Virus genome (UHGV): UHGV-0132371
DNA from: a virus
Length of the DNA: 45,879 nt
Strand: one strand, 5' to 3'
In this document: positions 957 to 45,829 of the stretch, piece by piece
Numbering within the stretch: the stretch's first letter is position 1
Layout of the letters: each line of letters begins with the position of its first letter
Notes under the pieces: model-generated
What the model was told of the DNA's origin: nothing
Databases searched by the model: none
The model's input: the letters and a program-made list of their open reading frames with translations, nothing else
Made by a program: the position numbers and the translations under genes

Positions 957-975
957 TCATAGCTGGTGCTTTTTG

Positions 976-1003
976 AAAACCCGCCTTTAGGCGGGTTTTT
1001 TCT
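976..1003 (+). terminator. Rho-independent terminator, probably bidirectional
   Basis: AAAACCCGCC-TTTA-GGCGGG hairpin followed by TTTTTTCTTT; lies between convergent genes. Confidence 0.6.
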
Positions 1004-1285
1004 TTAGTGATGTTCTTTGCCCTTCTGTTTGCCTGTTCTGACCTGTTCCCACTCGATACGTCCTTCTTCTCGTCTTTTGTCTATGTATTCCGCAAGATCC
1101 TGAATATTGATGCAACGTTTTGCTTTTTGTGATGTGCCGATGCGATATGTTGGAACGGGCAACTTACAAGCGTTTGCTTTTGCTTCTGCCGTGGCTGGAC
1201 TCATGCCAAAGTACTTTTGGCTAACTGCTGAGAGTTCAATGTTAGGGGTATTGAATTCAGCCATCAGTAAAAACAAGGTGTTCAT
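1004..1285 (-). CDS. Excisionase-like / PrtN-AlpA-type small DNA-binding protein
   Basis: About 93 aa, last gene of the leftward early operon; start chosen at MNTLF, which has GGAG 8 nt upstream (track ORF extends to 1312). Family assignment from memory. Confidence 0.5.
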   Translation of the reverse strand: MNTLFLLMAEFNTPNIELSAVSQKYFGMSPATAEAKANACKLPVPTYRIGTSQKAKRCINIQDLAEYIDKRREEGRIEWEQVRTGKQKGKEHH

Positions 1286-1321
1286 AATTTTCTCCATCAA
1301 AACCGGCTGCACCCGGGAAAA

Positions 1322-1894
1322 TCATAATTCTGTGCTGGTGGCAGGAATTAATTTCTGCCAGATAGCGGAAACATATTTTGCCTGATGACGAGCATCAGCC
1401 AGGGCGTTGTGCCGTTCGCCATCGAAAGGCATGTCCATTTTGGGGTCGAATCCGATGAAACGCCCAAGCGTAACGATCGTGCGTACATCGTGGTCATTCC
1501 AGTACGCCCACGGGCAGATTTGTCCTGCTCGCTCGTAAGCTCCACGTAAAATTACGTTGTCGAAGGTGGCCCCGTTACCCCAGACTTTTAAATATTTTGT
1601 ATTGTCTGCATGCTGATTAATGAAATGGCTCAGTTCAGATAGGGCAGATGATATCGGCATCGCATCATCAACACAGATTGCTGATCGTGCTTCTGAGCTT
1701 TGTCTTAACCACCACAGAATAGTGTCACCATCCGGCACCGCTCCCTGCTCCATAGCGCTTTCAAGATTAACAGCGGTGTAAAACTCCTGACCCAGTTCAC
1801 CGCTTTGCGGATCGAAGAATACGGCACCAATGGAGACAATAGGGGCATTCGGTTTTTTGCCCATGGACTCAAGGTCGATCATTAAGTTGTTCAC
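1322..1894 (-). CDS. 3'-5' exonuclease (DnaQ-like fold)
   Basis: 190 aa; N-terminal MNNLMIDLESMG...IVSIGAV and a later H-x4-D are typical of the DEDDh exonuclease fold common in enterobacterial prophages. Confidence 0.7.
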   Translation of the reverse strand: MNNLMIDLESMGKKPNAPIVSIGAVFFDPQSGELGQEFYTAVNLESAMEQGAVPDGDTILWWLRQSSEARSAICVDDAMPISSALSELSHFINQHADNTKYLKVWGNGATFDNVILRGAYERAGQICPWAYWNDHDVRTIVTLGRFIGFDPKMDMPFDGERHNALADARHQAKYVSAIWQKLIPATSTEL

Positions 1895-1915
1895 GTTAAA
1901 TATTCTCCTGTTTGG

Positions 1916-2170
1916 CTATTCAGTAATCTTGCCGCGACGCATCGCACGTAGGTTTTTCAGGTTTGTTTCCTGCTCTATTTCGGCACATATTTTGCGATAC
2001 TCATCATGCTCCACTCGTTCAAAATCTTCGTTAAAGCGTTTGATGCTAATCGTTCTCAGCTCGCCATCATTGCGTTTAATTCGGACCGAGTGATCACTAC
2101 AGCTATGGATAATTACGGGCCAGTTGCTACTGTCCGTGTAGATTTGACCGCGCCGAATCAGGCTAAACAT
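1916..2170 (-). CDS. Hypothetical phage protein
   Basis: 84 aa ORF, operon context, AGGAG upstream. Confidence 0.45.
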   Translation of the reverse strand: MFSLIRRGQIYTDSSNWPVIIHSCSDHSVRIKRNDGELRTISIKRFNEDFERVEHDEYRKICAEIEQETNLKNLRAMRRGKITE

Positions 2171-2172
2171 TC

Positions 2173-2640
2173 TTATTTTTTCTCCTGCTCTGACTGTTCT
2201 TTGATATGCAATCGAGGTTCCCCGTCTTTCGGCTCAGGCCATTGGCGAACCTTATTTATAGCCAGCTTTTTTATCATTGCCTGGGTAATCTGCTCATCAC
2301 TGATACCGGCACGACGTTGCGCATCCCATAACAGGAATTGCATGTCAGCCCATTCGCTAAGGTCGCCTGGTTCAGCAGCAGCCTCGAGCGCTTCTTTGGA
2401 AAGGTGCTTCAGCGGACCAACTGGACCGACATCGCCGAAAGTAGCCTGTGACCACGCTGCATGCTCACGGCGTACCAGCTCGCGGGCAATAGCCCCATCA
2501 ATCACCTTCAATACATCAGCGAGAATGTAGGCTCTGTTCCCGCCGTTTGAGTATTGGGTATCATGCAGCAGGTGTTCGCGTATCTGGTGCAGGCGATCGA
2601 GTGATACAGGACCGTGCGCCGGGTGGTTGTTAGTTGTCAT
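2173..2640 (-). CDS. DUF550-type putative dATP/dGTP pyrophosphohydrolase (MazG-like)
   Basis: 155 aa; strong AAGGAGG RBS; resembles the DUF550 prophage family from memory. Confidence 0.55.
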   Translation of the reverse strand: MTTNNHPAHGPVSLDRLHQIREHLLHDTQYSNGGNRAYILADVLKVIDGAIARELVRREHAAWSQATFGDVGPVGPLKHLSKEALEAAAEPGDLSEWADMQFLLWDAQRRAGISDEQITQAMIKKLAINKVRQWPEPKDGEPRLHIKEQSEQEKK

Positions 2641-2653
2641 GGGTTAGTCCTCC

Positions 2654-2962
2654 TTAATCCCATTGCAAAACTGATGCGAAATATGCACCGCGACACGGCG
2701 AATCACGAGGATGATGCCAGCCTGAATAGCCATCCTGACCACCTATTGGGCTAACTTTGTACCAGCACTGATAATAGCGGGCGCTACTTGCAAAATCAGC
2801 CGCACCATCCGAGTCGATTACATCTTGGGACACAGAAGCCTGAATTATTTCCGCTTCCGTATAATCGCCGCGCATAACGATGAATCGCGCATCTTCCGAG
2901 CAAAGATAATCACATGAACCGTCATATTTACCTTTGGCGGTAGGTTTGATTAATTTATCCAT
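2654..2962 (-). CDS. Hypothetical phage protein
   Basis: 102 aa ORF with GGGGGAG RBS; packed in operon. Confidence 0.45.
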   Translation of the reverse strand: MDKLIKPTAKGKYDGSCDYLCSEDARFIVMRGDYTEAEIIQASVSQDVIDSDGAADFASSARYYQCWYKVSPIGGQDGYSGWHHPRDSPCRGAYFASVLQWD

Positions 2963-2963
2963 C

Positions 2964-3311
2964 TCACTCCCCCTTCACGCCAATGCCAGCGGCTACAAGT
3001 TCTGCGGTGTTGGCATCCTGCTGTCGGCAGTCGCATTCAATCTCAATCGGCTCGCCCCATGGCTGCGTGCCGCCACTATCAGTCATTCCTGTGTCGTTGC
3101 ATTTCGGGCATGGTTTTTCCTCAAGCGCATTCAGCAACATACGGATCTCATGTTGTTGTGCTGCTATCGTTGAGTCTTTGGCTTCCAACTCATCCAGCAG
3201 CGCCTCCGCCTCGATGTAAATCACCTGCCGATCGTGGTCTGCCGGGTCGCTATAGTTGTCCTGCATGAACTGGAATTCTTCACGCAGCGCCTGTTTGTTG
3301 AGTGCTGTCAT
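2964..3311 (-). CDS. Ead/Ea22-like protein
   Basis: 115 aa; coiled-coil N-terminus and C-terminal CPKC...ECDC cysteine cluster typical of Ead/Ea22-like proteins. Confidence 0.5.
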   Translation of the reverse strand: MTALNKQALREEFQFMQDNYSDPADHDRQVIYIEAEALLDELEAKDSTIAAQQHEIRMLLNALEEKPCPKCNDTGMTDSGGTQPWGEPIEIECDCRQQDANTAELVAAGIGVKGE

Positions 3312-3562
3312 TGGGCTGCTCCTTGTCTGGCTCTGCTCAAGAGCTGGTTAAACATCATGGTTAGGCTGTTACTGCAACCAAACGGCATATCGTTAATGCG
3401 GTATGTTGGAATACCCTTGCGAACACCAGACTTCACGATCCGACCGGTGCCATAGAGCTGAGATAATGCTCCGGCGACCGCTGGGGTCTTTTTGTTCATA
3501 CCTTTGGCGATTTCACCGCTGGTGGTATTCGGATGAGCCTGGAGATATTCAAATACGGTCAT
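3308..3562 (-). CDS. Small winged-helix DNA-binding protein (putative)
   Basis: 84 aa; start overlaps the upstream stop (ATGA); predicted HTH-like segment. Confidence 0.45.
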   Translation of the reverse strand: MTVFEYLQAHPNTTSGEIAKGMNKKTPAVAGALSQLYGTGRIVKSGVRKGIPTYRINDMPFGCSNSLTMMFNQLLSRARQGAAQ

Positions 3563-3726
3563 GGCGTTTTATCTTTACGTTCCTGTTCCAGTTGCACCAG
3601 AGACTCTTTTAATGCTGCGAACGTAGCGTCCAGTCTGGTGGCGACTTCGCGCATAAGCGGCGCATGCTTTGGTGGCAATTCAGCAACGGAGGCAAACGCC
3701 TCCGCTACGAGTTCTTTTACCTTCAT
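3559..3726 (-). CDS. Small hypothetical protein (55 aa)
   Basis: ORF below track cutoff; ATGA overlap with stop of the upstream gene and TGA/ATG overlap with the downstream start suggest translational coupling. Confidence 0.35.
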   Translation of the reverse strand: MKVKELVAEAFASVAELPPKHAPLMREVATRLDATFAALKESLVQLEQERKDKTP

Positions 3727-4262
3727 GCGGCGCATTGGCGCTGCTCCATCAACTCGTTAAAGCGATTGATGAACATGCCGTATGACTGGCCAGGACGAAC
3801 TGGGTTGATAATGAATAAATCCGTTGGGACAACTCCCTCGAGGCATGGCCAAATGGAACCTTCGTCAATCTCAAAATCGCGGCGTTCGCTGGCGAGCATC
3901 ACCAGGTCGGCATATTTCACGGTTGGGTGTTGCTCAGTTGGTAGACCGAACTTCTGCCGAATGGCTGCGTCCACACGAGCTTCGATTGCCTGGTAATCCG
4001 GAAGCAGGCGCTTAAGTGGGGAGGGGATGTCCTGCAGGTAGGCTTCAGCAGCATCATGAAGCAGTGCTTCTAATGCAAACTCCTGCGGAACGAGGTGGCT
4101 GGTTAAAACGCTATGCTGGCCGACACTGTAAAACTCAGGAAGATGCCCTGCAAAGCGGCAGATATGAGACAACGCGGTAGCAATATCCTCGATCACGATA
4201 TCGTCCTGTTGGATATCGAGGTAATTAAAATGTTTGCCGGATAATGTCTGAATGTAGCTCAT
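3723..4262 (-). CDS. HD-domain phosphohydrolase (putative)
   Basis: LLHDAAEAY motif with upstream histidines; start chosen at MSYIQ, which has GGAG upstream (track ORF extends to 4289). Confidence 0.55.
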   Translation of the reverse strand: MSYIQTLSGKHFNYLDIQQDDIVIEDIATALSHICRFAGHLPEFYSVGQHSVLTSHLVPQEFALEALLHDAAEAYLQDIPSPLKRLLPDYQAIEARVDAAIRQKFGLPTEQHPTVKYADLVMLASERRDFEIDEGSIWPCLEGVVPTDLFIINPVRPGQSYGMFINRFNELMEQRQCAA

Positions 4263-4370
4263 GGTTTTCTCCATATTGGCGCGCTGCACCGCGCCATTAA
4301 ATTAATGAATTGCTGAATTTAGCGTGCAGCAACCCAACCCATGCTTATGGGGGTAATTGTTGCCTGGTGT

Positions 4371-5288
4371 TTATCGCTTGGCTTCGCCGCCGAGAGAGGT
4401 TGTTAATCCGTTAATGAGAGAGATAAGCTCGCCGGTCATCAGAACAAAGTCAGCGTCGAACCGCTGAGCCGCATCCTCACGGTCGATATCGTCGTTTTGT
4501 TCTGTAATCTCATTAGAGAACTTAAGGCGTTTGATGCTGCCGTCATCGCAAAGAACGAACTGAATGCGCTGTTGCCAGTCGATAGACAGCTTTGTAACTA
4601 CTTTGCCAGCTTCCAGATGCACATGAATTTCGTCACTGACCAGAGTCTGTTTTTTAAAGCGTCCAATACCGCCATCTTCAAGAATAGCTTTCAGTTCGGC
4701 TTCATCACCCAGGCCAAAGCCAGCAGGCGCACTACCGGAACGAACCCATTCGGTCATAGTTAGTTCGATCGGCGTTTCCATAGTCAGCGGTACCACCGGG
4801 AGAGAACCGAGAGTTTTACGAAGCAGGGCCAGTGAGTCTTCGGCACGTTTAGCGCTGGCTGCATCAACCATGATCAGACCGTCGGTGACGTTGATCCACA
4901 AACTAACAGTCGAGTTTTTGGAGAACGCCCGAGGAAGCAGGGAGTGCAACACTTCATCACGCAGCGAATCTTTCTCAGTTTTTTTGAGGCGACGCCCCTG
5001 ATCGGATTCCAGACGCGACACACGCTTGCGCAGTTCTTCAGCAATGACAGGAGATGGCAGTATTTTTTCTTCCCGGCGAATAACCAACAACACTTGATTA
5101 TTGACAGTGTGATGCAAGCGATCTGACAGCTGACCAAGTGGTGATACCCAACCGGTTTTTGCCATATCCTGGCTACCGCATGGAGTGAAGCGAAATAGTT
5201 CAAGCTGCTGTTCCAGCTCTTCCTGGTTGATGGTGAAATCGCGACTAATGCGATACACCAACATATTTTTGAAAAACGGATTGTTCAT
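4371..5288 (-). CDS. rdgC: Recombination-associated protein RdgC homolog
   Basis: 305 aa, alignable by eye along its whole length with E. coli RdgC ([11 protein letters not shown]..., [37 protein letters not shown]). Confidence 0.85.
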
Positions 5289-5340
5289 TCTCGGTTCCTC
5301 AACGCCTCTGCACCGGCGCTAAAAAGTTAGTTTCTCCATA

Positions 5341-5452
5341 CACAACAGAGAAGGGCACCTGCATTGGTCGGCGGCTTGCAGAGACCGCTTTCTTTTTGCC
5401 CGGGTGGATTGGGTTATGAGCCCGTCGCCCGGTGATGCCCTTTTCTGTTGTG
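5341..5452 (-). other. Long imperfect hairpin (16 of 18 bp stem, about 76 nt enclosed) in the leader between the first early-left gene and rdgC
   Basis: CACAACAGAGAAGGGCAC at 5341-5358 pairs with ATGCCCTTTTCTGTTGTG at 5435-5452; GC-rich interior with further self-complementarity. Confidence 0.4.
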
Positions 5453-5600: not shown

Positions 5601-5798
5601 ATGGGCGCTTTTGATAACCAGGAAATTACGTTACCCGCATGCCCTAAGTGCGGCACTAAGACGAAGAAGAAAATCGCTTGGCTCAAGTCGAACAAAAGTT
5701 TCACTTGTCGATGTGGAGCTACTATCAATGTCAACAGCAGCCAGCTTACTTCCGAAATCAGGATGGTTGAGGACAAGCTGAAGAAGCTCTTTAAATAG
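5601..5798 (+). CDS. Small zinc-ribbon protein (CPKCG...CRCG), antisense to the early-left gene
   Basis: AGAGGGA RBS, possible TGnTATCTT promoter upstream, hairpin plus T-run downstream; but it overlaps the minus-strand ORF 5631..5996, so it may be a shadow frame. Confidence 0.35.
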   Translation: MGAFDNQEITLPACPKCGTKTKKKIAWLKSNKSFTCRCGATINVNSSQLTSEIRMVEDKLKKLFK

Positions 5799-5996
5799 TT
5801 TTTTATCGACTGATATTATTTCGTTATCAGAGGTTGGTTTTTCAGCCTCTGATTTTTTAGTCAGGATCATTTTTTCTACACATGTGACTACGCATTCCGA
5901 ACAGATGGCAGGTTCGTCCTTACCACCTTTTGCGACGATCTTTATCGCTCCCAGTTCGGTTGCTCCGCAAAATGAGCATGTGAATAAATGATTCAT
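5631..5996 (-). CDS. ClpX-type zinc-finger protein, first gene of the leftward early operon
   Basis: N-terminus LFTCSFCG...(x19)...ICSECV..C closely matches the ClpX N-terminal zinc-binding domain; GAGG RBS before the ATG at 5996. Confidence 0.5.
   Translation of the reverse strand: MNHLFTCSFCGATELGAIKIVAKGGKDEPAICSECVVTCVEKMILTKKSEAEKPTSDNEIISVDKKLFKELLQLVLNHPDFGSKLAAVDIDSSSTSTSETFVRLEPSDFLLRLSAALRACG
5826..5859 (+). terminator. Possible hairpin terminator after the plus-strand small ORF
   Basis: ATCAGAGG...CCTCTGAT inverted repeat followed by TTTTTT; large loop, so weak. Confidence 0.3.
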
Positions 5997-6014
5997 GTAA
6001 ACCTCTACCCCCAA

Positions 6015-6252
6015 CCTAAGTTTTCTGTCAGCGAATCATCCGGTTATTCATATGCCACCGGCGGCTACTTCGTGGGCGTCCTGCCTGTTCGCTGTTGATG
6101 AATACATAATTAACCAATGGCTAATATTTGTAAACAACCAATAGTTAATTTTTGAGTGTTTAGGAATTAACTCAATGATTTTTAATAAAATATATTTTGT
6201 TGTTAAGTGATGACGTGCTTAAAAAAAACACCATCTACAAAAGAGGAGTGTT
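6015..6252. promoter_or_regulatory. AT-rich intergenic region; candidate early-left promoter/operator and promoter of the plus-strand small gene
   Basis: Very AT-rich with repeated GTTAAT/ATTAAC half-site-like motifs also present in the cI-cro intergenic region. Confidence 0.3.
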
Positions 6253-6459
6253 ATGGAACGTGATGATCTGGAAGAAGACCGCGCAGCGTTCATTGCTGGC
6301 GAGATAGGCGGAGTGGTGATTCAGTTAATCATCGAAGGGATCGAAATCAACCGTGATAATATCGTTGAGTATCTGGAGGCAAAGCGTCGCGCGGTTGGTA
6401 ACGTGATCCACAAAGGCTTGCTGAGAGATGCTGCGGAATTTGTGAGGAAAGGGCAATAA
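6253..6459 (+). CDS. Small acidic hypothetical protein (68 aa), moron-like
   Basis: Strong AAGAGGAG RBS; AT-rich upstream region; opposite orientation to neighbours. Confidence 0.5.
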   Translation: MERDDLEEDRAAFIAGEIGGVVIQLIIEGIEINRDNIVEYLEAKRRAVGNVIHKGLLRDAAEFVRKGQ

Positions 6460-6481
6460 AAACCCGACGCGGTGGTCGGGT
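6456..6481 (-). terminator. Rho-independent terminator ending the cI-cargo operon
   Basis: CCCGAC-CACCGC-GTCGGG hairpin followed by a U-tract on the minus strand, immediately after the stop at 6481. Confidence 0.55.
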
Positions 6482-6672
6482 TAGAACAGGAGTTTAACTG
6501 CGGCTAGGGTCAGACCTGTGATTGTAAAGATCGCACCAACTATCGACCAAGTCTGAATCCTGAGTTCCTTTTGTAGGTCTTCTCGTGTCGCGTAATTAGA
6601 CTTGATAACAGCAACATCAGTCTTAATGGACGCGATATCTACCTCAAGCTGCCTAACTCTTGCTTCAAGCAT
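6481..6672 (-). CDS. Small coiled-coil protein with C-terminal transmembrane helix (XhlA-like architecture)
   Basis: Start chosen at MLEARV, which has GGAGGTGA 6 nt upstream (track ORF extends to 6795 and would overlap the upstream gene); hydrophobic C-terminus [22 protein letters not shown]. Confidence 0.5.
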
Positions 6673-6739
6673 ATCATCACCTCCGCCATCTCCGCCTCGT
6701 CGTGTTATTGCAGGTAGTTCACTATTAAATGGTACTACA

Positions 6740-7087
6740 TTATTTTGCGGCGTCGGCATTTTTTTCATCTTCCGTTTTTGCCGGGAATTTTTCATTTACC
6801 CAGTTAAGAACTGAAAACGCATTTATATGTGTTTCATTTCCACAATTGTTGCATATTAGTGAAAAGTAATACTGGTTAGCAGTATCGGAATAAATGCTTT
6901 TTTCAGTAAAAACATTTACATAACTACCAAGCGCCATAGTGCATGGCATTCCAACACTCGCACTGACTTGAGGCACCGTTAACCTGTCATGCCCACATAG
7001 CGTGCATTTTAGATATATATTCTTTTCTGAGAAGTAAGAGACTAACATGTCCATGTTGATCCTTTCGAACCCCTGTTCACTCGCCAT
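6740..7087 (-). CDS. Zinc-ribbon protein (CTLCG...CNNCG), gene directly downstream of cI
   Basis: 115 aa, GAGGA RBS, starts 16 nt after the cI stop, so probably co-transcribed with the repressor. Confidence 0.55.
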
Positions 7088-7103: not shown

Positions 7104-7838
7104 TTAAAGTCGATTATATTTAATTGACTCATGAATCAATGCCTTACCCATGACATAAAGCTGATCCTGATTCGCCTCATTGATGTACCACTTTTCATAT
7201 GCAGAGTTATCAGACAGAACAGCGAGCTTGTCACCTTGCATCTGTAGGCGCTTAACATGAAACGTCTTACCGTATACGAAAGAGTAAACACCGTCGGTCT
7301 GGAAGTGACGAACTGAGATGTCGACGAATAGTCGATCACCAGAAACGAGGGTTGGTGACATACTGTCGCCGTTAACAGTCATGACCTTCACATCTTCTGG
7401 ATCGCGATTTCCAAAAAGCACTCGGGCATGTTCAGTCGTGAACTCAATGGCGTACAAGACTTCAACATAGTCAGAAAGCATGTAGGTGCCAGGTCCAGCA
7501 CTGACAGATAAATCCAGAACTTCAACGCGATAAACATCCTGCTCTGGCTTATTAACCATGCGTTTCACTTCCCCTGTATCTGTTGGCTCACCAACACCGT
7601 ATTCCAGCCATTCGGCACGTACACCAAGTACTTTACTGAGAGCCACTATTTTCTGACTGTCCGGTATGGCCTGGGCGTTGAACCACTTCCAAACTCCAGG
7701 TGTAGTGATCTCCACCCCGGCTTTATTAAGCAGGTCTGCAAGGTTTTTGTTTCGTCCCCGACCAGTTAATCCAGCAAGTTGACAAACTTGCAGCAGCCTA
7801 GTCGTGAAACCTTCTTTCGTTTCGTCTCTCTTAACCAT
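7104..7838 (-). CDS. cI: CI-like prophage repressor (N-terminal HTH, C-terminal S24 LexA-type peptidase domain)
   Basis: VNGDSMSPTL serine motif and downstream HVKRL lysine; divergent from a Cro-like gene. Confidence 0.85.
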   Translation of the reverse strand: MVKRDETKEGFTTRLLQVCQLAGLTGRGRNKNLADLLNKAGVEITTPGVWKWFNAQAIPDSQKIVALSKVLGVRAEWLEYGVGEPTDTGEVKRMVNKPEQDVYRVEVLDLSVSAGPGTYMLSDYVEVLYAIEFTTEHARVLFGNRDPEDVKVMTVNGDSMSPTLVSGDRLFVDISVRHFQTDGVYSFVYGKTFHVKRLQMQGDKLAVLSDNSAYEKWYINEANQDQLYVMGKALIHESIKYNRL

Positions 7839-9807: not shown

Positions 9808-10354
9808 CATGGCTACGATCCCAACCCTCGTTCAACCTGAAATTTCCGTAATTAACGGTCAGGCCGTTACCTCCTCTCTGGCTATTGCCGACTTCTTCAC
9901 TAAGCGTCACGATGACGTACTGAAAAAAATCCGCGCTCTGGAGTGTTCGCTAGAATTCACTGCCCGCAATTTTGCGGTGAGTGAATACACCGACGCTACA
10001 GGCCGCAAACTTCCCTGCTATCAAATCACCCGCGATGGCTTCGCGTTCCTCGCTATGGGCTTCACTGGTAAGCGAGCAGCACAGTTCAAAGAGGCATACA
10101 TCACAGCCTTCAACAGGATGGAAAATGCGCTTCACGGGGCAAGTGATAATTTCTGCGCAGCGCACAATGCCCACGTTGTTTACCTCTACATGTCTGAAAT
10201 TCACCGCGTCTGGTTAGAACAACTTTATCCGATGTTGGTTTCTGTTCAGTCTCCGCTAGCTTCATCACTCTACGACTACATCAACGATGGTGTATTCGTT
10301 GCTGGGTTGGTGGACTCGGAACTGAACAAAAAGCACAAGGAGGTGCGAAAGTGA
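9808..10354 (+). CDS. Rha-family phage regulatory protein
   Basis: Start at the ATG with AAAGAGG RBS (track ORF artificially extends upstream to 9098); ING..VTSSL.IADFF.KRHDDVLKKI and YQITRDGF.FLAMGFTG.RAA.FK motifs. Confidence 0.6.
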
Positions 10355-11217
10355 GCACTAAATTAACCGGCTACGTATGGGATGGTTGCGCGGCGTCGGG
10401 CATGAAGTTGTCTAGTGTCGCGATCATGGCTCGCCTCGCTGATTTCAGCAGCGATGAGGGCGTGTGCTGGCCGTCCATTGAAACTATTGCTCGCCAGCTT
10501 GGCGCAGGGCCTAGCACGATCAGAACGGCAATCGCAAAGCTTGAAAAAGATGGCTGGCTCACGCGTACACAGCGCCGTAATGGTAACCGTAATGCGTCGA
10601 ACGTGTACCGCCTGAATGTAGCGAAACTTCAGGCTGCCGCATTTTCTCAACTGTCAGATTCTGACACGTCAAAATCTGACGCATCAAAATTTGACGCCTC
10701 AAAAACTGACCCGTCGAAATCCGTCAAAAACGGCGGTTTTGACCCGTCAGAATCTGGCGGGGATCCGTCAGTAAAATCAAAACAAGATCCACAAGTAACT
10801 TCAAAACCCTCTTGTCCGGTTGCTGCGCAACCAGACCCTGAGGTTGTGATTACTGATCAGGCCAGACAGGTCTTGTCTTACCTGAACCAGACAACTGGCT
10901 CACGCTACCAGGTATGCAGTACGTCGCTGGAGAATATTCGCGCCCGTCTTCGGGAACAATTCACGGTTGATGACCTGTGCCTGGTAGTGGATTACAAAAA
11001 TGCCGATTGGCGTGATAGCGAGCAGGCGCAATACCTCCGCCCGGCAACTCTGTTCATTCCAAAAAACTTCCCTGGTTACCTGCAAAGCGCGACCAAATGG
11101 TCCAGTGCTGGCCGGCCTGAACGCGTTAACGGCAAATGGGAGACTAACTCAGCCAGCCGCGCAAACTTCCAGAGTGTTGATTACTCACTGCCAGAAAATT
11201 CGGGGTTCCGTTCATGA
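10351..11217 (+). CDS. Replication initiation protein (N-terminal wHTH, conserved phage C-terminal domain)
   Basis: GTG start with AAGGAGG RBS; O-like position in the operon; iteron array inside the gene. Confidence 0.6.
   Translation: MSTKLTGYVWDGCAASGMKLSSVAIMARLADFSSDEGVCWPSIETIARQLGAGPSTIRTAIAKLEKDGWLTRTQRRNGNRNASNVYRLNVAKLQAAAFSQLSDSDTSKSDASKFDASKTDPSKSVKNGGFDPSESGGDPSVKSKQDPQVTSKPSCPVAAQPDPEVVITDQARQVLSYLNQTTGSRYQVCSTSLENIRARLREQFTVDDLCLVVDYKNADWRDSEQAQYLRPATLFIPKNFPGYLQSATKWSSAGRPERVNGKWETNSASRANFQSVDYSLPENSGFRS
10655..10785. repeat. Iteron array (putative origin of replication) inside the replication gene
   Basis: Six or seven tandem copies of a roughly 14-15 bp unit TGAC(R)CGTCAAAA, encoding the DSDTSKSDASKFDASKTD segment. 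Confidence 0.55.
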
Positions 11218-14903: not shown

Positions 14904-15803
14904 ATGCCTAATTGGAATCATGTTATGGGCGAGGTTGCAGTCCTCGCCCAAAAAAGCCCCCTAGACACAGTAAGAAGCAAATATATCAAAGAGATGTCGC
15001 AGATGACCGGACGTAACGTCATTGCGTACTACTCGGGGTTCCTTCAGAATAGCTCGCATTTATGTACTATGTCTGATGATGATAAAAATGGATTCATGAC
15101 AGCGGTTCATGGGCTCGATGCCACGAAGGGGCTTGATCTCATTTTGCATACACCTGGTGGGGATATCGCCGCCTTAGAATCGATAGGTTATTACTTGAGA
15201 GCTAAGTTCGGTAACGATATCCGTGCTTTTGTCCCCATGATATCTATGTCAGCAGGGACTATGTTGGCTTGTTGTGCAAAAGAAATCATCATGGGGAAAC
15301 AATCAAATATCGGTCCTTTCGATCCCCAAATAGGTGGCGTGCCAGCACATGGCGTGATTGAAGAAGCGCAGAAGGCTATGCAAGATATTATTAAAAACCC
15401 TGCGACTGCTGCGTATTGGCAATTTACACTGTCTAAACTCAATCCGACGTTCATTGGTGAGTGTGAAAAGGCAATCCAATGGGCAACAACAATTGTCAGT
15501 GAATGGCTAATTACTGGTATGTTTGATGGGGATCCAGATGCCCAGCAAAAGGCTGAAGCTATTTGTTCAAGCCTGAATAACCACAGTTCAACTTTTGCTC
15601 ATGCACGTCATATTCACAGTGATAAAGCTAGCCAAATTGGTTTGAAAATCATACCGATGGAAGCAGATCAGGCATTACAAGATATTGTGTTAACGATACA
15701 TCATAGCTATATGCACACTTTTGGTGGCAGTACAGCAGCCAAGATTATCGAGAACCATGAGGATGGCCGAAGAGTCTGGCATGTCCCTCCTGGAAACGCG
15801 TAA
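14904..15803 (+). CDS. S49/SDH-family ClpP-fold serine peptidase (second copy besides gpC)
   Basis: 299 aa with LILHTPGGDI and MISMSAGTMLACCA motifs typical of ClpP/SppA-fold peptidases; AT-rich; bracketed by terminators. Confidence 0.6.
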   Translation: MPNWNHVMGEVAVLAQKSPLDTVRSKYIKEMSQMTGRNVIAYYSGFLQNSSHLCTMSDDDKNGFMTAVHGLDATKGLDLILHTPGGDIAALESIGYYLRAKFGNDIRAFVPMISMSAGTMLACCAKEIIMGKQSNIGPFDPQIGGVPAHGVIEEAQKAMQDIIKNPATAAYWQFTLSKLNPTFIGECEKAIQWATTIVSEWLITGMFDGDPDAQQKAEAICSSLNNHSSTFAHARHIHSDKASQIGLKIIPMEADQALQDIVLTIHHSYMHTFGGSTAAKIIENHEDGRRVWHVPPGNA

Positions 15804-41293: not shown

Positions 41294-42301
41294 ATGCTTT
41301 ATAACACAGGAACTATCTCTATTAACGGAAATACCGCAACCGGATCCGGTACAAACTGGACTGCACCGGCCAGCCAGGTTCGCGCTGGCCAGACGATTAT
41401 TGTCATGTCTAACCCGGTTCAGATGTTCCAGATTTCATCCGTGAATAGCGCCACGTCAATGACGGTAACGCCTGCTGCATCACCGGCGCTGAGCGGCCAG
41501 AAGTACGGCATTCTGGTATCAGACAATATCTCGGTTGATGGGCTGGCGCAGGCCATGTCGCAGCTTATCAAGGAGTATGACGAGAATATTGGCGCGTGGG
41601 AGACGTTCGCCACCACCTCAGCAAACCAAAGCATCACAGTTACCATCAACGGCACCGCCGTAACCATCCCAGGCATCGGTAAACTTGCGCAGAAAGGGAG
41701 CAATGGTGCGCTTGCAATCGCTGACGGCGGGACCGGGGCAACGAAGGCAGAAGACGCTCGCAAAAACCTTGGTTTGGGAGAAGGTGCTCCAGCTATTGGC
41801 GTTCCGTTCTTCTGGCCGTCCGCCGCAATGCCAAATACTGTAATCGACAGTTGGTCCAGTATGGTGTTTTTGAAGTTCAACGGCGCGAAATTCTCTGCCA
41901 CTGATTACCCTGTGCTGGCGAAAGTGTTTCCGGCGCTAGCATTACCTGACGCACGGGGTGATTTCATTCGTATCTGGGATGATGGGCGCGGGATTGATGT
42001 CGGACGTACCCTACTTTCAGGGCAATCACACACAATTATGGATCATGCACACAATATGGAATTGTGGACGGGGGACGGGCTTGCCGCAGGAAGTGCACGG
42101 GAAGGAGTAAACCCAGGAATACTGGCTACATACGGTGACGGGGGAATAGTTAAAACGGACGAACCCGGTCTTAAGGTGCCTTCCTCACTACGAGCTCTTA
42201 GCTCTCGTAGTGTTAAACGTTATGGTGAAATTAGTGGAAATGTAGATACAGAAACCCGTCCACGAAATATTGCATTTAACTTTCTGGTGAGGGCTAAATA
42301 A
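41294..42301 (+). CDS. Side tail fibre protein (constant N-terminus plus currently expressed variable C-terminus)
   Basis: Start at the ATG with GGAGAA RBS; glycine-rich fibre-like sequence; the recombination site lies inside the gene. Confidence 0.7.
   Translation: MLYNTGTISINGNTATGSGTNWTAPASQVRAGQTIIVMSNPVQMFQISSVNSATSMTVTPAASPALSGQKYGILVSDNISVDGLAQAMSQLIKEYDENIGAWETFATTSANQSITVTINGTAVTIPGIGKLAQKGSNGALAIADGGTGATKAEDARKNLGLGEGAPAIGVPFFWPSAAMPNTVIDSWSSMVFLKFNGAKFSATDYPVLAKVFPALALPDARGDFIRIWDDGRGIDVGRTLLSGQSHTIMDHAHNMELWTGDGLAAGSAREGVNPGILATYGDGGIVKTDEPGLKVPSSLRALSSRSVKRYGEISGNVDTETRPRNIAFNFLVRAK
41757..41784. other. Left crossover site of the invertible tail-fibre segment (Hin/Gin/Pin-type)
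   Basis: CTCGCAAAAACCTTGGTTTGGGAGAAGG; its TTGGTTTGGGAGAAG core is an inverted copy of 43629..43643. Confidence 0.55.
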
Positions 42302-42894
42302 TGATACCTGTTTTTGATGAAAATGGGCTGGCTACAGTGCCGGGCGATATGCGTTGTTTTTATTATAATGCAGTAACGTATGAATATACCGGCTGGTCTG
42401 ATGAATATATTAATACTGGCGTAAGTATACCCGCCTGTTCCACTGGTATTGACCCGGGCGAAAACATCCCGGGAAAAGTGGCAGTATTTACGGGTAAGGG
42501 ATGGAGCCATGAAGAAGACCATCGCAATGAGACCGTTTACTCAACTGAAAATGGCGCAGCTGTTACAGTGGATTATATCGGTGCCATCAAAGACGGTTAT
42601 GTCACGCTTTCACCGTTAACGCCATACGATAAATGGGATGGTGAGAAATGGGTGACGGATACCGAGGCACAGCATAGCGCCGCAGTAGAAGCGGCAGAAG
42701 CACAGCGCCAGTCGCTGATTGATGCTGCAATGGCTTCCATCAGTCTGATTCAACTGAAATTACAGGCTGGGCGGAAGCTGACGCAGCCAGAAAACACCCG
42801 ACTTAACGCTGTGCTGGATTACATTGACGCGGTGACGGCAACAGATACCAGCACAGCGCCGGACGTCATCTGGCCTGAACTGCCGGAGGCGTAG
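42301..42894 (+). CDS. Tail fibre assembly protein (Tfa)
   Basis: C-terminal LNAVLDYIDAV...DTSTAPDVIWPELP motif typical of Tfa chaperones. Confidence 0.7.
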   Translation: MIPVFDENGLATVPGDMRCFYYNAVTYEYTGWSDEYINTGVSIPACSTGIDPGENIPGKVAVFTGKGWSHEEDHRNETVYSTENGAAVTVDYIGAIKDGYVTLSPLTPYDKWDGEKWVTDTEAQHSAAVEAAEAQRQSLIDAAMASISLIQLKLQAGRKLTQPENTRLNAVLDYIDAVTATDTSTAPDVIWPELPEA

Positions 42895-43309
42895 ACCATT
42901 CAATATCTGGCGCACCGGAAGTATCGACCAGTTCCAGTGCGTCCAGATAATCCAGCCACAAATTATATTGCGCCAGTTCCTCACCTTTCAGACGACCAAT
43001 TGATGCTTTACCTGGCCATTGTTTACTGTTTATGTATTCGTTGGCCTGGTTAATCAATTGCTGCTTTTTAGTTTCGGCTGATGCAATTTGTTCTTCACGT
43101 GTTGGTGGAGGAATATCTGCCCATGCAGGCAGTCCATCCTCTCCGACACATCTGTATTTTCCTTCTGGTGGTGTATCATAGAAATATTCCCTGAAAATTA
43201 CTTCGTCTATATCAACACCTTTTTCTTCAGGCCATTCACCTTTTTCAACATAAAGAGACTGAAGTTCGTAAGGATATGCCAGGTTGTTTACGTACAGATA
43301 TTTCATCAT
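42866..43309 (-). CDS. Alternative tail fibre assembly protein (Tfa')
   Basis: C-terminal NLWLDYLDALELVDTSGAPDIEW motif; opposite orientation inside the invertible segment. Confidence 0.65.
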   Translation of the reverse strand: MMKYLYVNNLAYPYELQSLYVEKGEWPEEKGVDIDEVIFREYFYDTPPEGKYRCVGEDGLPAWADIPPPTREEQIASAETKKQQLINQANEYINSKQWPGKASIGRLKGEELAQYNLWLDYLDALELVDTSGAPDIEWSTPPAVQAR

Positions 43310-43662: not shown

Positions 43663-43714
43663 AAATCTGGTGATGCTTCGCCGTTTCTCCTGTTTTCATA
43701 ACAGGAGAAATCCC

Positions 43715-44278
43715 ATGATTTACGGTTATGCCCGAGTATCAACAAACCACCAGGACACTGAATTGCAACTAACGGCGCTCAAGTCAGCGGGTTGTGAGAA
43801 AATTTTTGAAGAGCATGCCAGCGGGAGGAAATCGAATCGGCCGGTTCTAAAACGGCTCATCGCCACTATGCAGCCGGGGGATGAACTGGTGGTCTGGAAG
43901 CTGGACAGGATAGGCCGCAACGTTCTGCATGCGCTGTTGATGTTCCAGCAGTTACAGGAAAAGGGTATCAACTTCCGCAGTATTACCGATGGCGTGGATC
44001 TCAAAACAGCCAGCGGCCGCTATAACTTTCGTAACATCCTTTCCGCAGCACAATATGAATCTGATCTTAATAGCGAACGTACCTTAGCAGGGCTGGCCGT
44101 AGCCAGGGCAAAAGGGCGAGTTGGTGGGCGTAGACCGAAGTTTAGCGACGAGCAGTGGCAACAGATGGGAGCGCTCATAGCGGCAGGGAAATCACGGCGT
44201 TATGTTGCACGTATCTATAACGTTGGGCTATCAACCCTATATAAACGATTTCCTGTTACTGGCATTCAAACGAAATAA
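43715..44278 (+). CDS. Serine recombinase, DNA invertase of the Hin/Gin/Pin/Cin family
   Basis: MIYGYARVSTNHQ catalytic N-terminus; C-terminal HTH; AGGAGAAA RBS (track ORF starts upstream at 43670). Confidence 0.85.
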   Translation: MIYGYARVSTNHQDTELQLTALKSAGCEKIFEEHASGRKSNRPVLKRLIATMQPGDELVVWKLDRIGRNVLHALLMFQQLQEKGINFRSITDGVDLKTASGRYNFRNILSAAQYESDLNSERTLAGLAVARAKGRVGGRRPKFSDEQWQQMGALIAAGKSRRYVARIYNVGLSTLYKRFPVTGIQTK

Positions 44279-44731: not shown

Positions 44732-45829
44732 TCAAGAGATCTTATTTCTGCTCCTTTGGAGCTCTTCAAAACGATTATGTAAAGATTTTGGATACAGTTC
44801 GGTATATACCTGCCATAGCACGTTTAATGAACGATGCCCTGTAACCTGGGCTACTTCCTCAATACTAAAACCAGCCTCAAATAAGCGACTTGCCCCTTCT
44901 CTACGCAAATCATGGTATCGCAGATCCTTAATACCTAATTTGCTTCTTACCCTCTGAAATCCCGCAGTAACAGAAGTGCTGTTATATGGAAAAATGAATT
45001 CCGATTTTTGGGGCTGTCGTTGGACGATATCCCAGGCTTCCCCAAGCAAGGCTACTTTCATGTGGTTGCCTTCCTTTTTGCGTGGATCTTTCCTGTCTCT
45101 TACGAGTATAGATTTTTGTTCCTGGTCGAGATCTTCCCATCGTAACCGGCATACTTCTCCGATTCGCATACAGGACCACACAGAAAATTTGAGGATATCA
45201 ACGAACGGAATTTTTGAGCATTTATGAGTAGATCGTTGTTGAAGGCCTTCAATGAGCATGTCCAGTTCATCAGATGCTGGTCTACGATTACGACGGTTTG
45301 ATTTACCAATTAAACCAAGTTTAAGTAGATATGGACGAGCGGCTTTTGCTGGGTTTGATGTGTAATTAATTCCATATACAGGTTTGGCAGCATCCAGAAC
45401 ACTGCCAAGATAACTAACATCGTGGCTAACTGTAGCTGGACCTGCACCAGCGTTGTTTCTTAGCCTGCAATGTTCAATTACGTCATTTTCTGTCAGTTCA
45501 GATAGTTTGATCGCGGAGATGTCACTATCCATAAGCAGTTCCAGCACATATCTTTTAGTACGGCCTGCTTTACCTCCGGCATTTGGGTCATTTAAATATT
45601 TGTGTAGTAAGTCACGGACTGTAAGTCCGTCAACTGCATTTGATGATGGAATGCCATATAGATCTAATTCCATCACTTTCTGTGTGCCCCATGTTTTGGC
45701 ATGAGCATGTTTAGGGAATGTTTTGCTTTCCCTGTAAGTGATAACACCTTTTTCTTTGATAATCACATTACAGCGATAGCGTGGTGTGCCATCGGATTTT
45801 AGTCGTTTCTCTATGTTATAGTACGCCAT
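44732..45829 (-). CDS. int: Tyrosine site-specific integrase
   Basis: 365 aa; C-terminal catalytic motifs (HDLRREGASRL, VTGHRSL, YTELY); GAGG RBS. Confidence 0.85.
   Translation of the reverse strand: MAYYNIEKRLKSDGTPRYRCNVIIKEKGVITYRESKTFPKHAHAKTWGTQKVMELDLYGIPSSNAVDGLTVRDLLHKYLNDPNAGGKAGRTKRYVLELLMDSDISAIKLSELTENDVIEHCRLRNNAGAGPATVSHDVSYLGSVLDAAKPVYGINYTSNPAKAARPYLLKLGLIGKSNRRNRRPASDELDMLIEGLQQRSTHKCSKIPFVDILKFSVWSCMRIGEVCRLRWEDLDQEQKSILVRDRKDPRKKEGNHMKVALLGEAWDIVQRQPQKSEFIFPYNSTSVTAGFQRVRSKLGIKDLRYHDLRREGASRLFEAGFSIEEVAQVTGHRSLNVLWQVYTELYPKSLHNRFEELQRSRNKIS

Follow-up and report, generated by a model that had tools for sequence, protein, structure and literature searches.

Inhibition of host DNA replication has long been associated with the exo-xis region, a part of the leftward early operon of phage lambda (PMC10834534). 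Three protein families described in other settings bear on the locus reported here. YfdR, from the cryptic prophage CPS-53 of Escherichia coli K-12, binds DnaA domain I (Phe46), and its overexpression together with YfdQ and YfdS or YfdT inhibits initiation at oriC; deletion of the CPS-53 genes next to yfdR (yfdQ and yfdS) alters sensitivity to hydrogen peroxide (H2O2) and methyl methanesulfonate (MMS) (PMC4776307). In phage T4, host DNA is scavenged by the exonuclease DexA; an E. coli homologue, EcD ("HREX"), is reported to digest T4 DNA containing 5-hydroxymethylcytosine (5hmC) and, when plasmid-borne, to protect against T4 (PMC12153337). Enzymes of the DUF550 and MazZ kind turn dGTP (and, in one phage, dATP as well) into the monophosphate and thereby feed PurZ in phages with Z genomes (PMC12884076, PMC8342488). 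We analysed a stretch of 45,879 nucleotides, UHGV virus genome UHGV-0132371 (the window), which is a complete lambda-like E. coli prophage. On the minus strand, between positions 1322 and 4262, it carries one gene of each of these three kinds: a YfdR-type HD phosphohydrolase, a DUF550/MazZ-type pyrophosphohydrolase and a DexA-like exonuclease.

The finding is real but ordinary. The families have already been described, the exact exonuclease, DUF550 and HD proteins have all been deposited publicly with sensible names ("3'-5' exonuclease", "DUF550 domain-containing protein" and "HD family hydrolase"), and the same arrangement is found in E. coli Nissle 1917. The three genes are not one conserved module; only the HD and exonuclease genes recur together. 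We regard them as ordinary accessory genes of a lambda exo-xis-type region, for which a role in the deoxynucleotide pool or in host replication is plausible. In its fuller form, which we hold with about even confidence, this reading says that the region is a dispensable accessory part of the lambda-like leftward early operon that turns over deoxynucleotides and restrains host replication. The genes are intact, and their families, catalytic residues, packing in the operon and pattern of co-occurrence are directly observed. The original prediction had placed three hydrolase folds here by motif. Its limits coincide with RefSeq gene boundaries, and domain searches bear out all three assignments (PF16473 and PF04447 for two of them, phrog_318 and identity to YfdR for the third), far beyond chance given the profile scores. 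The three genes, in the direction of transcription, are:

3723-4262, minus: HD phosphohydrolase, YfdR orthologue, 179 amino acids (phrog_318; YfdR identity)
2173-2640, minus: DUF550/MazZ-type pyrophosphohydrolase protein, 155 amino acids (PF04447, E 3.7e-44)
1322-1894, minus: DEDDh 3'-5' exonuclease of the Rv2179c/T4 DexA family, 190 amino acids (PF16473, E 8.8e-74)

The exonuclease matches PF16473 (Rv2179c-like) across the whole profile (positions 1-177 of 177; 247.5 bits, well above the cutoff of 27), as well as phrog_255 "exonuclease" (E 2e-90) and, by sequence, the T4 DexA structures 8KEN/8KEL in the PDB (E 1e-7). The catalytic residues D7, E9, D112 and H162-x4-D167 are all present, and the five DEDDh residues are invariant among 14 homologues with 64-79% identity. 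An AlphaFold2 model of the protein (mean predicted local distance difference test score, pLDDT, of 86.6) is most similar in a Foldseek search to T4 DexA (8KEL/8KEN; E 2e-11, template modelling (TM) score 0.78), followed by RNase T, Orn and Cap18. These results confirm a DEDDh 3'-5' exonuclease of DexA/Rv2179c type with an intact active site, whose activity is predicted. It shares with DexA the DEDDh fold and the catalytic residues, and its W132 corresponds to DexA W152. However, the two proteins are only 23-28% identical, and the window exonuclease is 37 residues shorter. It lacks the DexA insertion that includes D169, the proposed reader of the 5-hydroxymethyl group, and the tetramer-forming S87 and D90 of DexA are replaced by P80 and S82/S83. 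EcD is a different allele; its primers give a protein that starts with MIDTET and ends with TIPETY. A search with this primer-derived sequence found no match in 349 loci, and its single match in the viral collection was spurious.

A recombination exonuclease of the RecE or lambda-Exo type was considered and rejected: the fold is DEDDh and not PD-(D/E)XK. Four phage records (ON470603, OR670062, PV340565 and KY653119) nevertheless label the DEDDh exonuclease "exodeoxyribonuclease VIII" (RecE). Exodeoxyribonuclease VIII has another fold and the opposite polarity, and the label is probably a propagated misannotation.

The DUF550 protein consists of two parts, an N-terminal module (residues 1-55) and an all-alpha (d)NTP pyrophosphohydrolase domain of the DUF550/MazZ type (residues 57-151). 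The latter covers positions 2-96 of the 97 in PF04447 (149.4 bits against a cutoff of 23) and also matches the MazZ structure 7ODY in the PDB (E 8e-4). In a HMMER alignment to 7ODY, E83, E86, E96 and D99 fall on the MazZ metal ligands E35, E38, E50 and D53 (residue list from PMC8342488), and D106, K125, N129, R132 and W134 fall on MazZ D60, K76, N80, R83 and W85. The sole difference is K82 at the position of MazZ E34, which also varies among MazZ homologues. The annotation of AH04 and Nissle 1917 by the Prokaryotic Genome Annotation Pipeline (PGAP) treats the gene as a partial pseudogene with a "missing C-terminus" (window 2194-2526; L001 5695-6027; L002 5405-5737). This flag is probably an artefact of comparison with longer reference proteins, because the open reading frame (ORF) is complete, a strong ribosome-binding site (AAGGAGG) precedes its ATG, the whole Pfam domain is present and at least 1000 contigs are recorded as encoding the exact 155-residue protein.

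The N-terminal module (window 2476-2640) has a distribution of its own. Elsewhere it is joined to other C-terminal domains, for example in a 243-residue protein in L245 (~5792-6520), and 19 of the 31 module-bearing loci in the exonuclease-anchored set described below carry it without a DUF550 domain. Its swappable-domain design recalls that of the mosaic Ea22 proteins (PMC10834534). A cut-down DatZ/MazZ/PurZ cluster was also considered. It was rejected, since Pfam scans of 40 window proteins detected no PurZ (adenylosuccinate synthetase homologue), DatZ (dATPase), DpoZ or any other DNA polymerase, and since the HD protein is of the YfdR type.

The HD protein is identical to K-12 YfdR at 114 of 178 residues (64%) without gaps (E 1e-90), and it matches phrog_318 (E 1e-98) and, more distantly, Atu1052 (PDB 2GZ4, E 4e-13). 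Its metal-binding residues H50, H69-D70, D78 and D119 are present and align with those of Atu1052 and YfbR, which are more distant relatives. Its score against the YfbR-like Pfam model PF12917 (21.7 bits) is below the 25.9-bit cutoff; the YfdR clade is only marginally covered by this model, and the low score is no argument against placing the protein in the YfdR family. A GGAG Shine-Dalgarno motif precedes the ATG at 4262, and an alternative GTG start is present at 4289. RefSeq names YfdR "5'-deoxynucleotidase". The name of phrog_318, "deoxyribonucleoside 5' monophosphate phosphatase", is that of Dmp of phage T5. Homology to T5 Dmp was tested and rejected (BLASTP E 3.6; L349 124-858), and Dmp appears from its motifs to be an enzyme of the HAD type. 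The likeness is functional only and consists in the predicted conversion of deoxynucleoside monophosphates (dNMPs) to deoxynucleosides. Database labels for these genes are thus misleading in three places: the exodeoxyribonuclease VIII name, the Dmp-style name of the HD family and the pseudogene flag on the DUF550 gene.

The three genes belong to a leftward operon on the minus strand, in which rdgC lies upstream of them. In the direction of transcription, the other members are as follows, with the HD gene lying between RdgC and orf58 and the DUF550 gene between orf102 and the DUF4222 gene:

4371-5288, minus: RdgC, recombination-associated DNA-binding protein (PF04381, E 8e-116; NCBIfam NF001460, 513 bits, cutoff 501)
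3559-3735, minus: orf58, small helical protein (phrog_12248, E 1e-34, function unknown)
3308-3562, minus: 84-residue protein, probably winged-helix (phrog_1687 "MarR family", E 7e-25; no Pfam match)
2964-3311, minus: mosaic protein, Ead/Ea22-like at the N-terminus and Cys-rich (CPKC...CDC) at the C-terminus (phrog_19867, E 8e-65; DNA similar to phage P22 eaD/eaF)
2654-2962, minus: orf102 (phrog_28696, E 2e-72, function unknown; no Pfam, NCBIfam or PADLOC match)
1916-2170, minus: DUF4222 protein (PF13973, E 2e-10; phrog_285, E 9e-31)
1004-1312, minus: PrtN-family excisionase-like protein, last gene of the operon (PF11112, E 4e-23; phrog_1300 "excisionase", E 8e-40)

Neighbouring genes overlap or are 1-21 nucleotides apart, apart from a gap of 108 nucleotides between rdgC and the HD gene, and a Shine-Dalgarno site precedes each of them. 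The start of orf58 overlaps the stop codon of the HD gene. A scan of positions 1300-5300 found no sigma-70-like promoter, and its only terminator-like match on the minus strand is weak and lies inside rdgC. Because of the tight packing, the lack of an internal promoter and the lack of any internal terminator beyond this weak match, the cluster is most simply read as the promoter-distal part of a leftward early operon that would be kept repressed during lysogeny and switched on by induction or infection. No recombinase of the Red-beta, Erf or RecT type lies between the repressor gene and rdgC; as the original prediction had it, RdgC and the cluster occupy the usual place of recombination genes. 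Of the 10 cluster proteins, only the exonuclease drew a PADLOC match, a weak and generic one (E 9e-5) to "DEDDh, CRISPR-associated" (CRISPR, clustered regularly interspaced short palindromic repeats).

Window positions 1000-5400 are 100% identical to sequences in E. coli AH04, AH02 and CT01, and the prophage in Nissle 1917 has 97.6% DNA identity over 1289-5400. Among 5426 complete E. coli genomes, 808 carry some part of 1000-5400 and only 26 carry at least 80% of it.

To determine which of the genes travel together, we ran co-occurrence searches in which each gene served once as the anchor; the loci lack phylogenetic independence. In the 80 viral contigs whose exonuclease is closest to that of the window (87-99% identity), the HD gene is found 0.6-3.1 kb upstream of the exonuclease gene in 77, at 49 different spacings and as three HD allele classes (~64%, 70% and 97-100% identity). 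Anchoring on the HD gene, the exonuclease is present in 36 of the 58 contigs that extend far enough downstream. The gene seen most often alongside HD is orf58, found in 72 of 80 HD-anchored loci. Of the loci anchored on DUF550, 12 have both the HD and exonuclease genes, one has only HD, 13 have only the exonuclease and 31 have neither. This corresponds to an HD-exonuclease odds ratio of 29 (p 7e-5), or 14 (p 0.008) without close relatives of the window, p-values that are indicative only because of the non-independence of the loci. In a set with one genome per species, the HD gene lies within ~6 kb of the exonuclease on the same strand in 26 of 61 exonuclease loci, upstream in all but one. In Serratia (L269) and Erwinia (L278) the two lie directly next to each other. 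In the exceptional Erwinia locus (L298) they also abut, with the order inverted (exonuclease 10001-10567, HD 10567-11091), and in Pedobacter (L305) a single ORF separates them; Pfam confirmed the families in both L298 and L305. The HD gene accompanies most of the exonucleases that are ~66-92% identical to that of the window, usually together with a YfdQ-like gene as in CPS-53.

Two further observations concern these loci. The Pedobacter genome (Pedobacter sp. PAMC26386; L305 9027-10540) is that of a member of the Bacteroidota, distant from the Enterobacterales, and its HD and exonuclease proteins, with the small ORF between them, are 41% and 44% identical to the window proteins. A YfdQ-like protein of ~275 residues, assigned by eye to YfdQ/DUF2303, precedes the HD gene in 15 of the 26 HD-bearing species-level loci (L244-L311, ~2.4 kb upstream of the exonuclease).

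The remaining genes are much less constant. When matches to the 55-residue N-terminal module alone are not counted, a true DUF550 domain is found in 16 of 58 HD-anchored loci, in 13 of 80 exonuclease-anchored loci and, within the slot between the HD and exonuclease genes, in 3 of 61 species-level loci, and the full trio is present in 14 of 58, 12 of 80 and 3 of 61, respectively. RdgC, found in 19 of 80 HD-anchored, 15 of 80 exonuclease-anchored and 2 of 61 species-level loci, is unlinked to the cluster, and the mosaic Ead/Ea22-like gene is found in at most 6 of 80 related loci. Thus, of the cluster of three that had been proposed, the association of HD and exonuclease stands, whereas the trio as a conserved unit does not. 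In our reading, the HD and exonuclease genes frame a cargo slot in one enterobacterial prophage lineage, and the DUF550, DUF4222, Ead-like, orf102 and winged-helix genes are exchangeable cargo between them. We found no paper that describes this frame, and its recurrence is the mildly new point of the analysis.

With regard to substrates, joint action and physiological role, we infer the following scheme. The genes would be co-transcribed after induction or infection. The exonuclease would trim 3' ends or oligonucleotides to mononucleotides; the DUF550 enzyme would convert purine (d)NTPs to (d)NMPs and pyrophosphate; and the YfdR orthologue would dephosphorylate dNMPs and might in addition interfere with DnaA. 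The predicted reactions would then form a chain from DNA or deoxynucleoside triphosphates (dNTPs) through dNMPs to deoxynucleosides, with the net effect of turning over host-derived oligonucleotides and deoxynucleotides and restraining host replication in favor of the phage. The role in the nucleotide pool that had been suggested for the cluster is consistent with this scheme and with the characterised homologues, namely DUF550/MazZ enzymes that convert dGTP or dATP to the monophosphate and YfdR, annotated as a 5'-deoxynucleotidase.

Several observations weigh against this scheme. The exonuclease matches its Pfam family end to end, and the founding member of that family, Rv2179c of Mycobacterium tuberculosis, is itself a cellular 3'-5' exoribonuclease, so that RNA is a possible substrate. 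YfdR is reported to have a nucleotide affinity much below that of YfbR, and its function has been called elusive (PMC4776307). The set of proteins that inhibits initiation in K-12 is incomplete here: no cluster protein matches YfdQ (DUF2303) or YfdS (DUF551), and none but the HD protein aligns to the products of yfdQ, yfdS or yfdT. A phage that relies on host replication, with no polymerase found among 40 scanned proteins, has no obvious gain from draining purine dNTPs. The association of the HD and exonuclease genes is also largely lineage-structured. The HD gene is mostly absent from the clade of exonucleases with 53-65% identity, where no non-homologous substitute nucleotidase was evident, and it is found in only 3 of 37 diverse environmental phage exonuclease loci. 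Three distant phages with the HD gene (Ralstonia, Burkholderia and Enterobacter) show no exonuclease or DUF550 gene in the 24.6-38.6 kb examined of their 42-47 kb genomes; in one of the distant HD-carrying phages the HD gene adjoins genes for a DNA polymerase and a ligase. The pairing is therefore not universal.

The lineage structure and the scarcity of the HD gene among diverse exonuclease loci also give weight to the main rival explanation, which we consider possible but doubtful: that the three enzymes are unrelated cargo in a mosaic region, and that the HD-exonuclease association reflects only common descent and physical linkage. The rarity of the region in E. coli genomes, the small share of related loci with the trio, the way in which the presence of HD follows the exonuclease clade and the location of the HD gene of distant phages in replication modules all favor it. 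It does not readily explain why the pair has been kept across 49 spacings and three HD allele classes, why it is also found abutting, inverted and in a Bacteroidota genome, or why the predicted products and substrates of the enzymes would chain chemically. At the opposite extreme, the YfdR-type HD enzyme and the DexA-like exonuclease, which frequently flank a small ORF, could be a true two-enzyme module of lambdoid prophages that would degrade DNA to deoxynucleosides, with DUF550 as an optional triphosphate step, and that would serve the exclusion of superinfecting phages with modified DNA or the shut-down of host DNA metabolism; we think this improbable. A related idea applies to the whole cluster: the exonuclease would act like EcD on incoming 5hmC-type DNA, and the HD and DUF550 enzymes would clear the released or precursor modified nucleotides. 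The reported protection against T4 by plasmid-borne EcD, which shares the fold family of the window exonuclease (PMC12153337), speaks for exclusion of this kind, as do the retained W132 and the loss of the tetramer-forming residues. Yet EcD is a different allele, the insertion with D169 is absent, the gene lies deep in a repressed early operon with no promoter of its own found, and PADLOC gives only its generic match, all of which make this explanation unlikely.

Equally unlikely, in our view, is sanitation of the pool and genome during SOS or oxidative induction, whereby DUF550 would remove damaged purine dNTPs, the HD enzyme would dephosphorylate the resulting dNMPs and the exonuclease would remove aberrant 3' termini. 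House-cleaning is the canonical role of the all-alpha NTP pyrophosphatases, prophage induction typically follows DNA damage, and the altered H2O2 and MMS sensitivity of the yfdQ and yfdS deletions (PMC4776307) fits as well; against it, DUF550 is found in only a minority of the HD-exonuclease loci. The original prediction had raised counter-defence. On this view, one or more of the enzymes would hydrolyse (p)ppGpp or the immune signals of the cyclic-oligonucleotide-based antiphage signalling system (CBASS), Pycsar, Thoeris or type III CRISPR, or would protect the phage where a defence depletes dNTPs. Some members of the HD and MazG superfamilies do use signalling nucleotides as substrates, and the model of the exonuclease resembles Orn bound to pGG and Cap18 (TM ~0.62-0.70). 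However, the nearest characterised relatives act on DNA, dGTP/dATP and dNMPs, and none acts on cyclic or signalling nucleotides; the equivalent of MazZ D60, the reader of the guanine 2-amino group, is conserved (D106); and PADLOC adds nothing beyond its weak DEDDh match. The three folds are also not known to match those of the anti-CBASS, anti-Pycsar and anti-Thoeris proteins (Acb1, Apyc1 and similar), which are 2H phosphoesterases, metallo-beta-lactamase (MBL) folds and sponge proteins; no search with anti-defence profiles was made. Rescue from dNTP depletion fares no better, as hydrolysis of dNTPs to dNMPs and on to deoxynucleosides would aggravate the depletion. When T5-like phages escape the Clover dGTPase defence, the responsible mutations map to their own dmp (dNMP phosphatase) and nrdAB (ribonucleotide reductase) (PMC12265719), which suggests, by analogy, that enzymes remodelling the pool can make a phage vulnerable to defence. 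The only published phenotype of an E. coli DexA homologue likewise points the opposite way, to defence against T4 (PMC12153337). Nothing in the analysis supports the destruction of immune signals, and we regard counter-defence as very unlikely. An accessory exo-xis-type region with a role in deoxynucleotide turnover and host replication remains our preferred reading.

The remainder of the window is consistent with a lambda-like prophage. The morphogenesis genes are of the lambda type (Nu1 and gpA terminase, lambda-family portal, S49 protease and capsid protein E), and the early right region encodes CII-like, Rha/Ash, O-like (Phg_2220_C), RusA, antirepressor, DUF968, Q and DNA methylase proteins. 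Two further genes are:

7104-7838, minus: S24/LexA-type repressor
44732-45829, minus: tyrosine integrase

The integrase gene at the right end and the excisionase-like gene at the left end (1004-1312, minus) occupy opposite ends of the window, so attP is expected between them in the circular form. The assemblies of AH02 and CT01 each contain, beside the chromosomal copy, an extra record of ~43.7 kb (NZ_CP081704.1 and NZ_CP081794.1) that is 100% identical to window 1000-5400 and is probably an excised circular phage genome. In AH04, a truncated tRNA-dihydrouridine synthase gene fragment (L001 3303-3407) flanks the left end of the prophage, which suggests integration into dusA.

Other parts of the window also drew our attention. 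Between the prophage end and the excisionase-like gene lie two ORFs on the plus strand (50-586 and 783-956) in an AT-rich stretch (43% G+C), followed by a strong terminator-like hairpin at 975-1000 (plus). The first encodes a 178-residue protein without a Pfam or PADLOC match that could be expressed in the lysogen. Directly downstream of the repressor gene are two small genes (6481-7087, minus; 104 and 115 residues), one with a faint CpXC zinc-ribbon match, which end at a terminator-like hairpin (6482-6461, minus); at the position of lambda rexAB, they are candidates for co-expression with the repressor. At the other end of the window, two convergent tail-fibre assembly genes (42301-42894, plus; 42866-43309, minus) adjoin a gene for a Hin/Gin-type serine invertase (43670-44278), an arrangement that resembles a host-range switch working by inversion. 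Between the Q antiterminator and DNA methylase genes, an unusual position, an AT-rich stretch (~43-45% G+C) holds a gene for a ClpP-like SDH-type serine protease (14904-15803, plus), which may have been inserted there.

Three recent lines of research, on YfdR and DnaA, on DexA and HREX, and on DUF550/MazZ, meet in this cluster and could be tested jointly in the Nissle 1917 prophage. In each case the known system resembles the locus in part. The exonuclease gene belongs to the early operon of a temperate phage, unlike that of T4 DexA. MazZ of cyanophage S-2L (7ODY) and the DUF550 enzyme of Acinetobacter phage SH-Ab 15497 share with the window protein the PF04447 family and the MazG-HisE fold, and four of the five MazZ metal ligands and the nucleotide-contacting residues are kept; but these enzymes are part of a Z-genome cluster with PurZ and DatZ, and the window protein adds its swappable N-terminal module. 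K-12 YfdR shares the HD residues and the position upstream of an excisionase gene in a lambdoid early operon, whereas K-12 has lost the exonuclease and has yfdQ at the place held by RdgC in the window. The closest parallel for the region as a whole is provided by the lambda exo-xis and P22 ea regions. Like them, it is situated between recombination-type genes and xis, would be transcribed early from the leftward promoter and consists of mosaic, dispensable genes, including those for Ea22/Ead-like proteins, and it has DNA similarity to the eaD/eaF region of phage P22 and to the EaA gene of SEN22. None of lambda's own exo-xis genes orf60a, orf61, orf63 and orf73 was identified in the window, where enzymes fill much of the segment instead.

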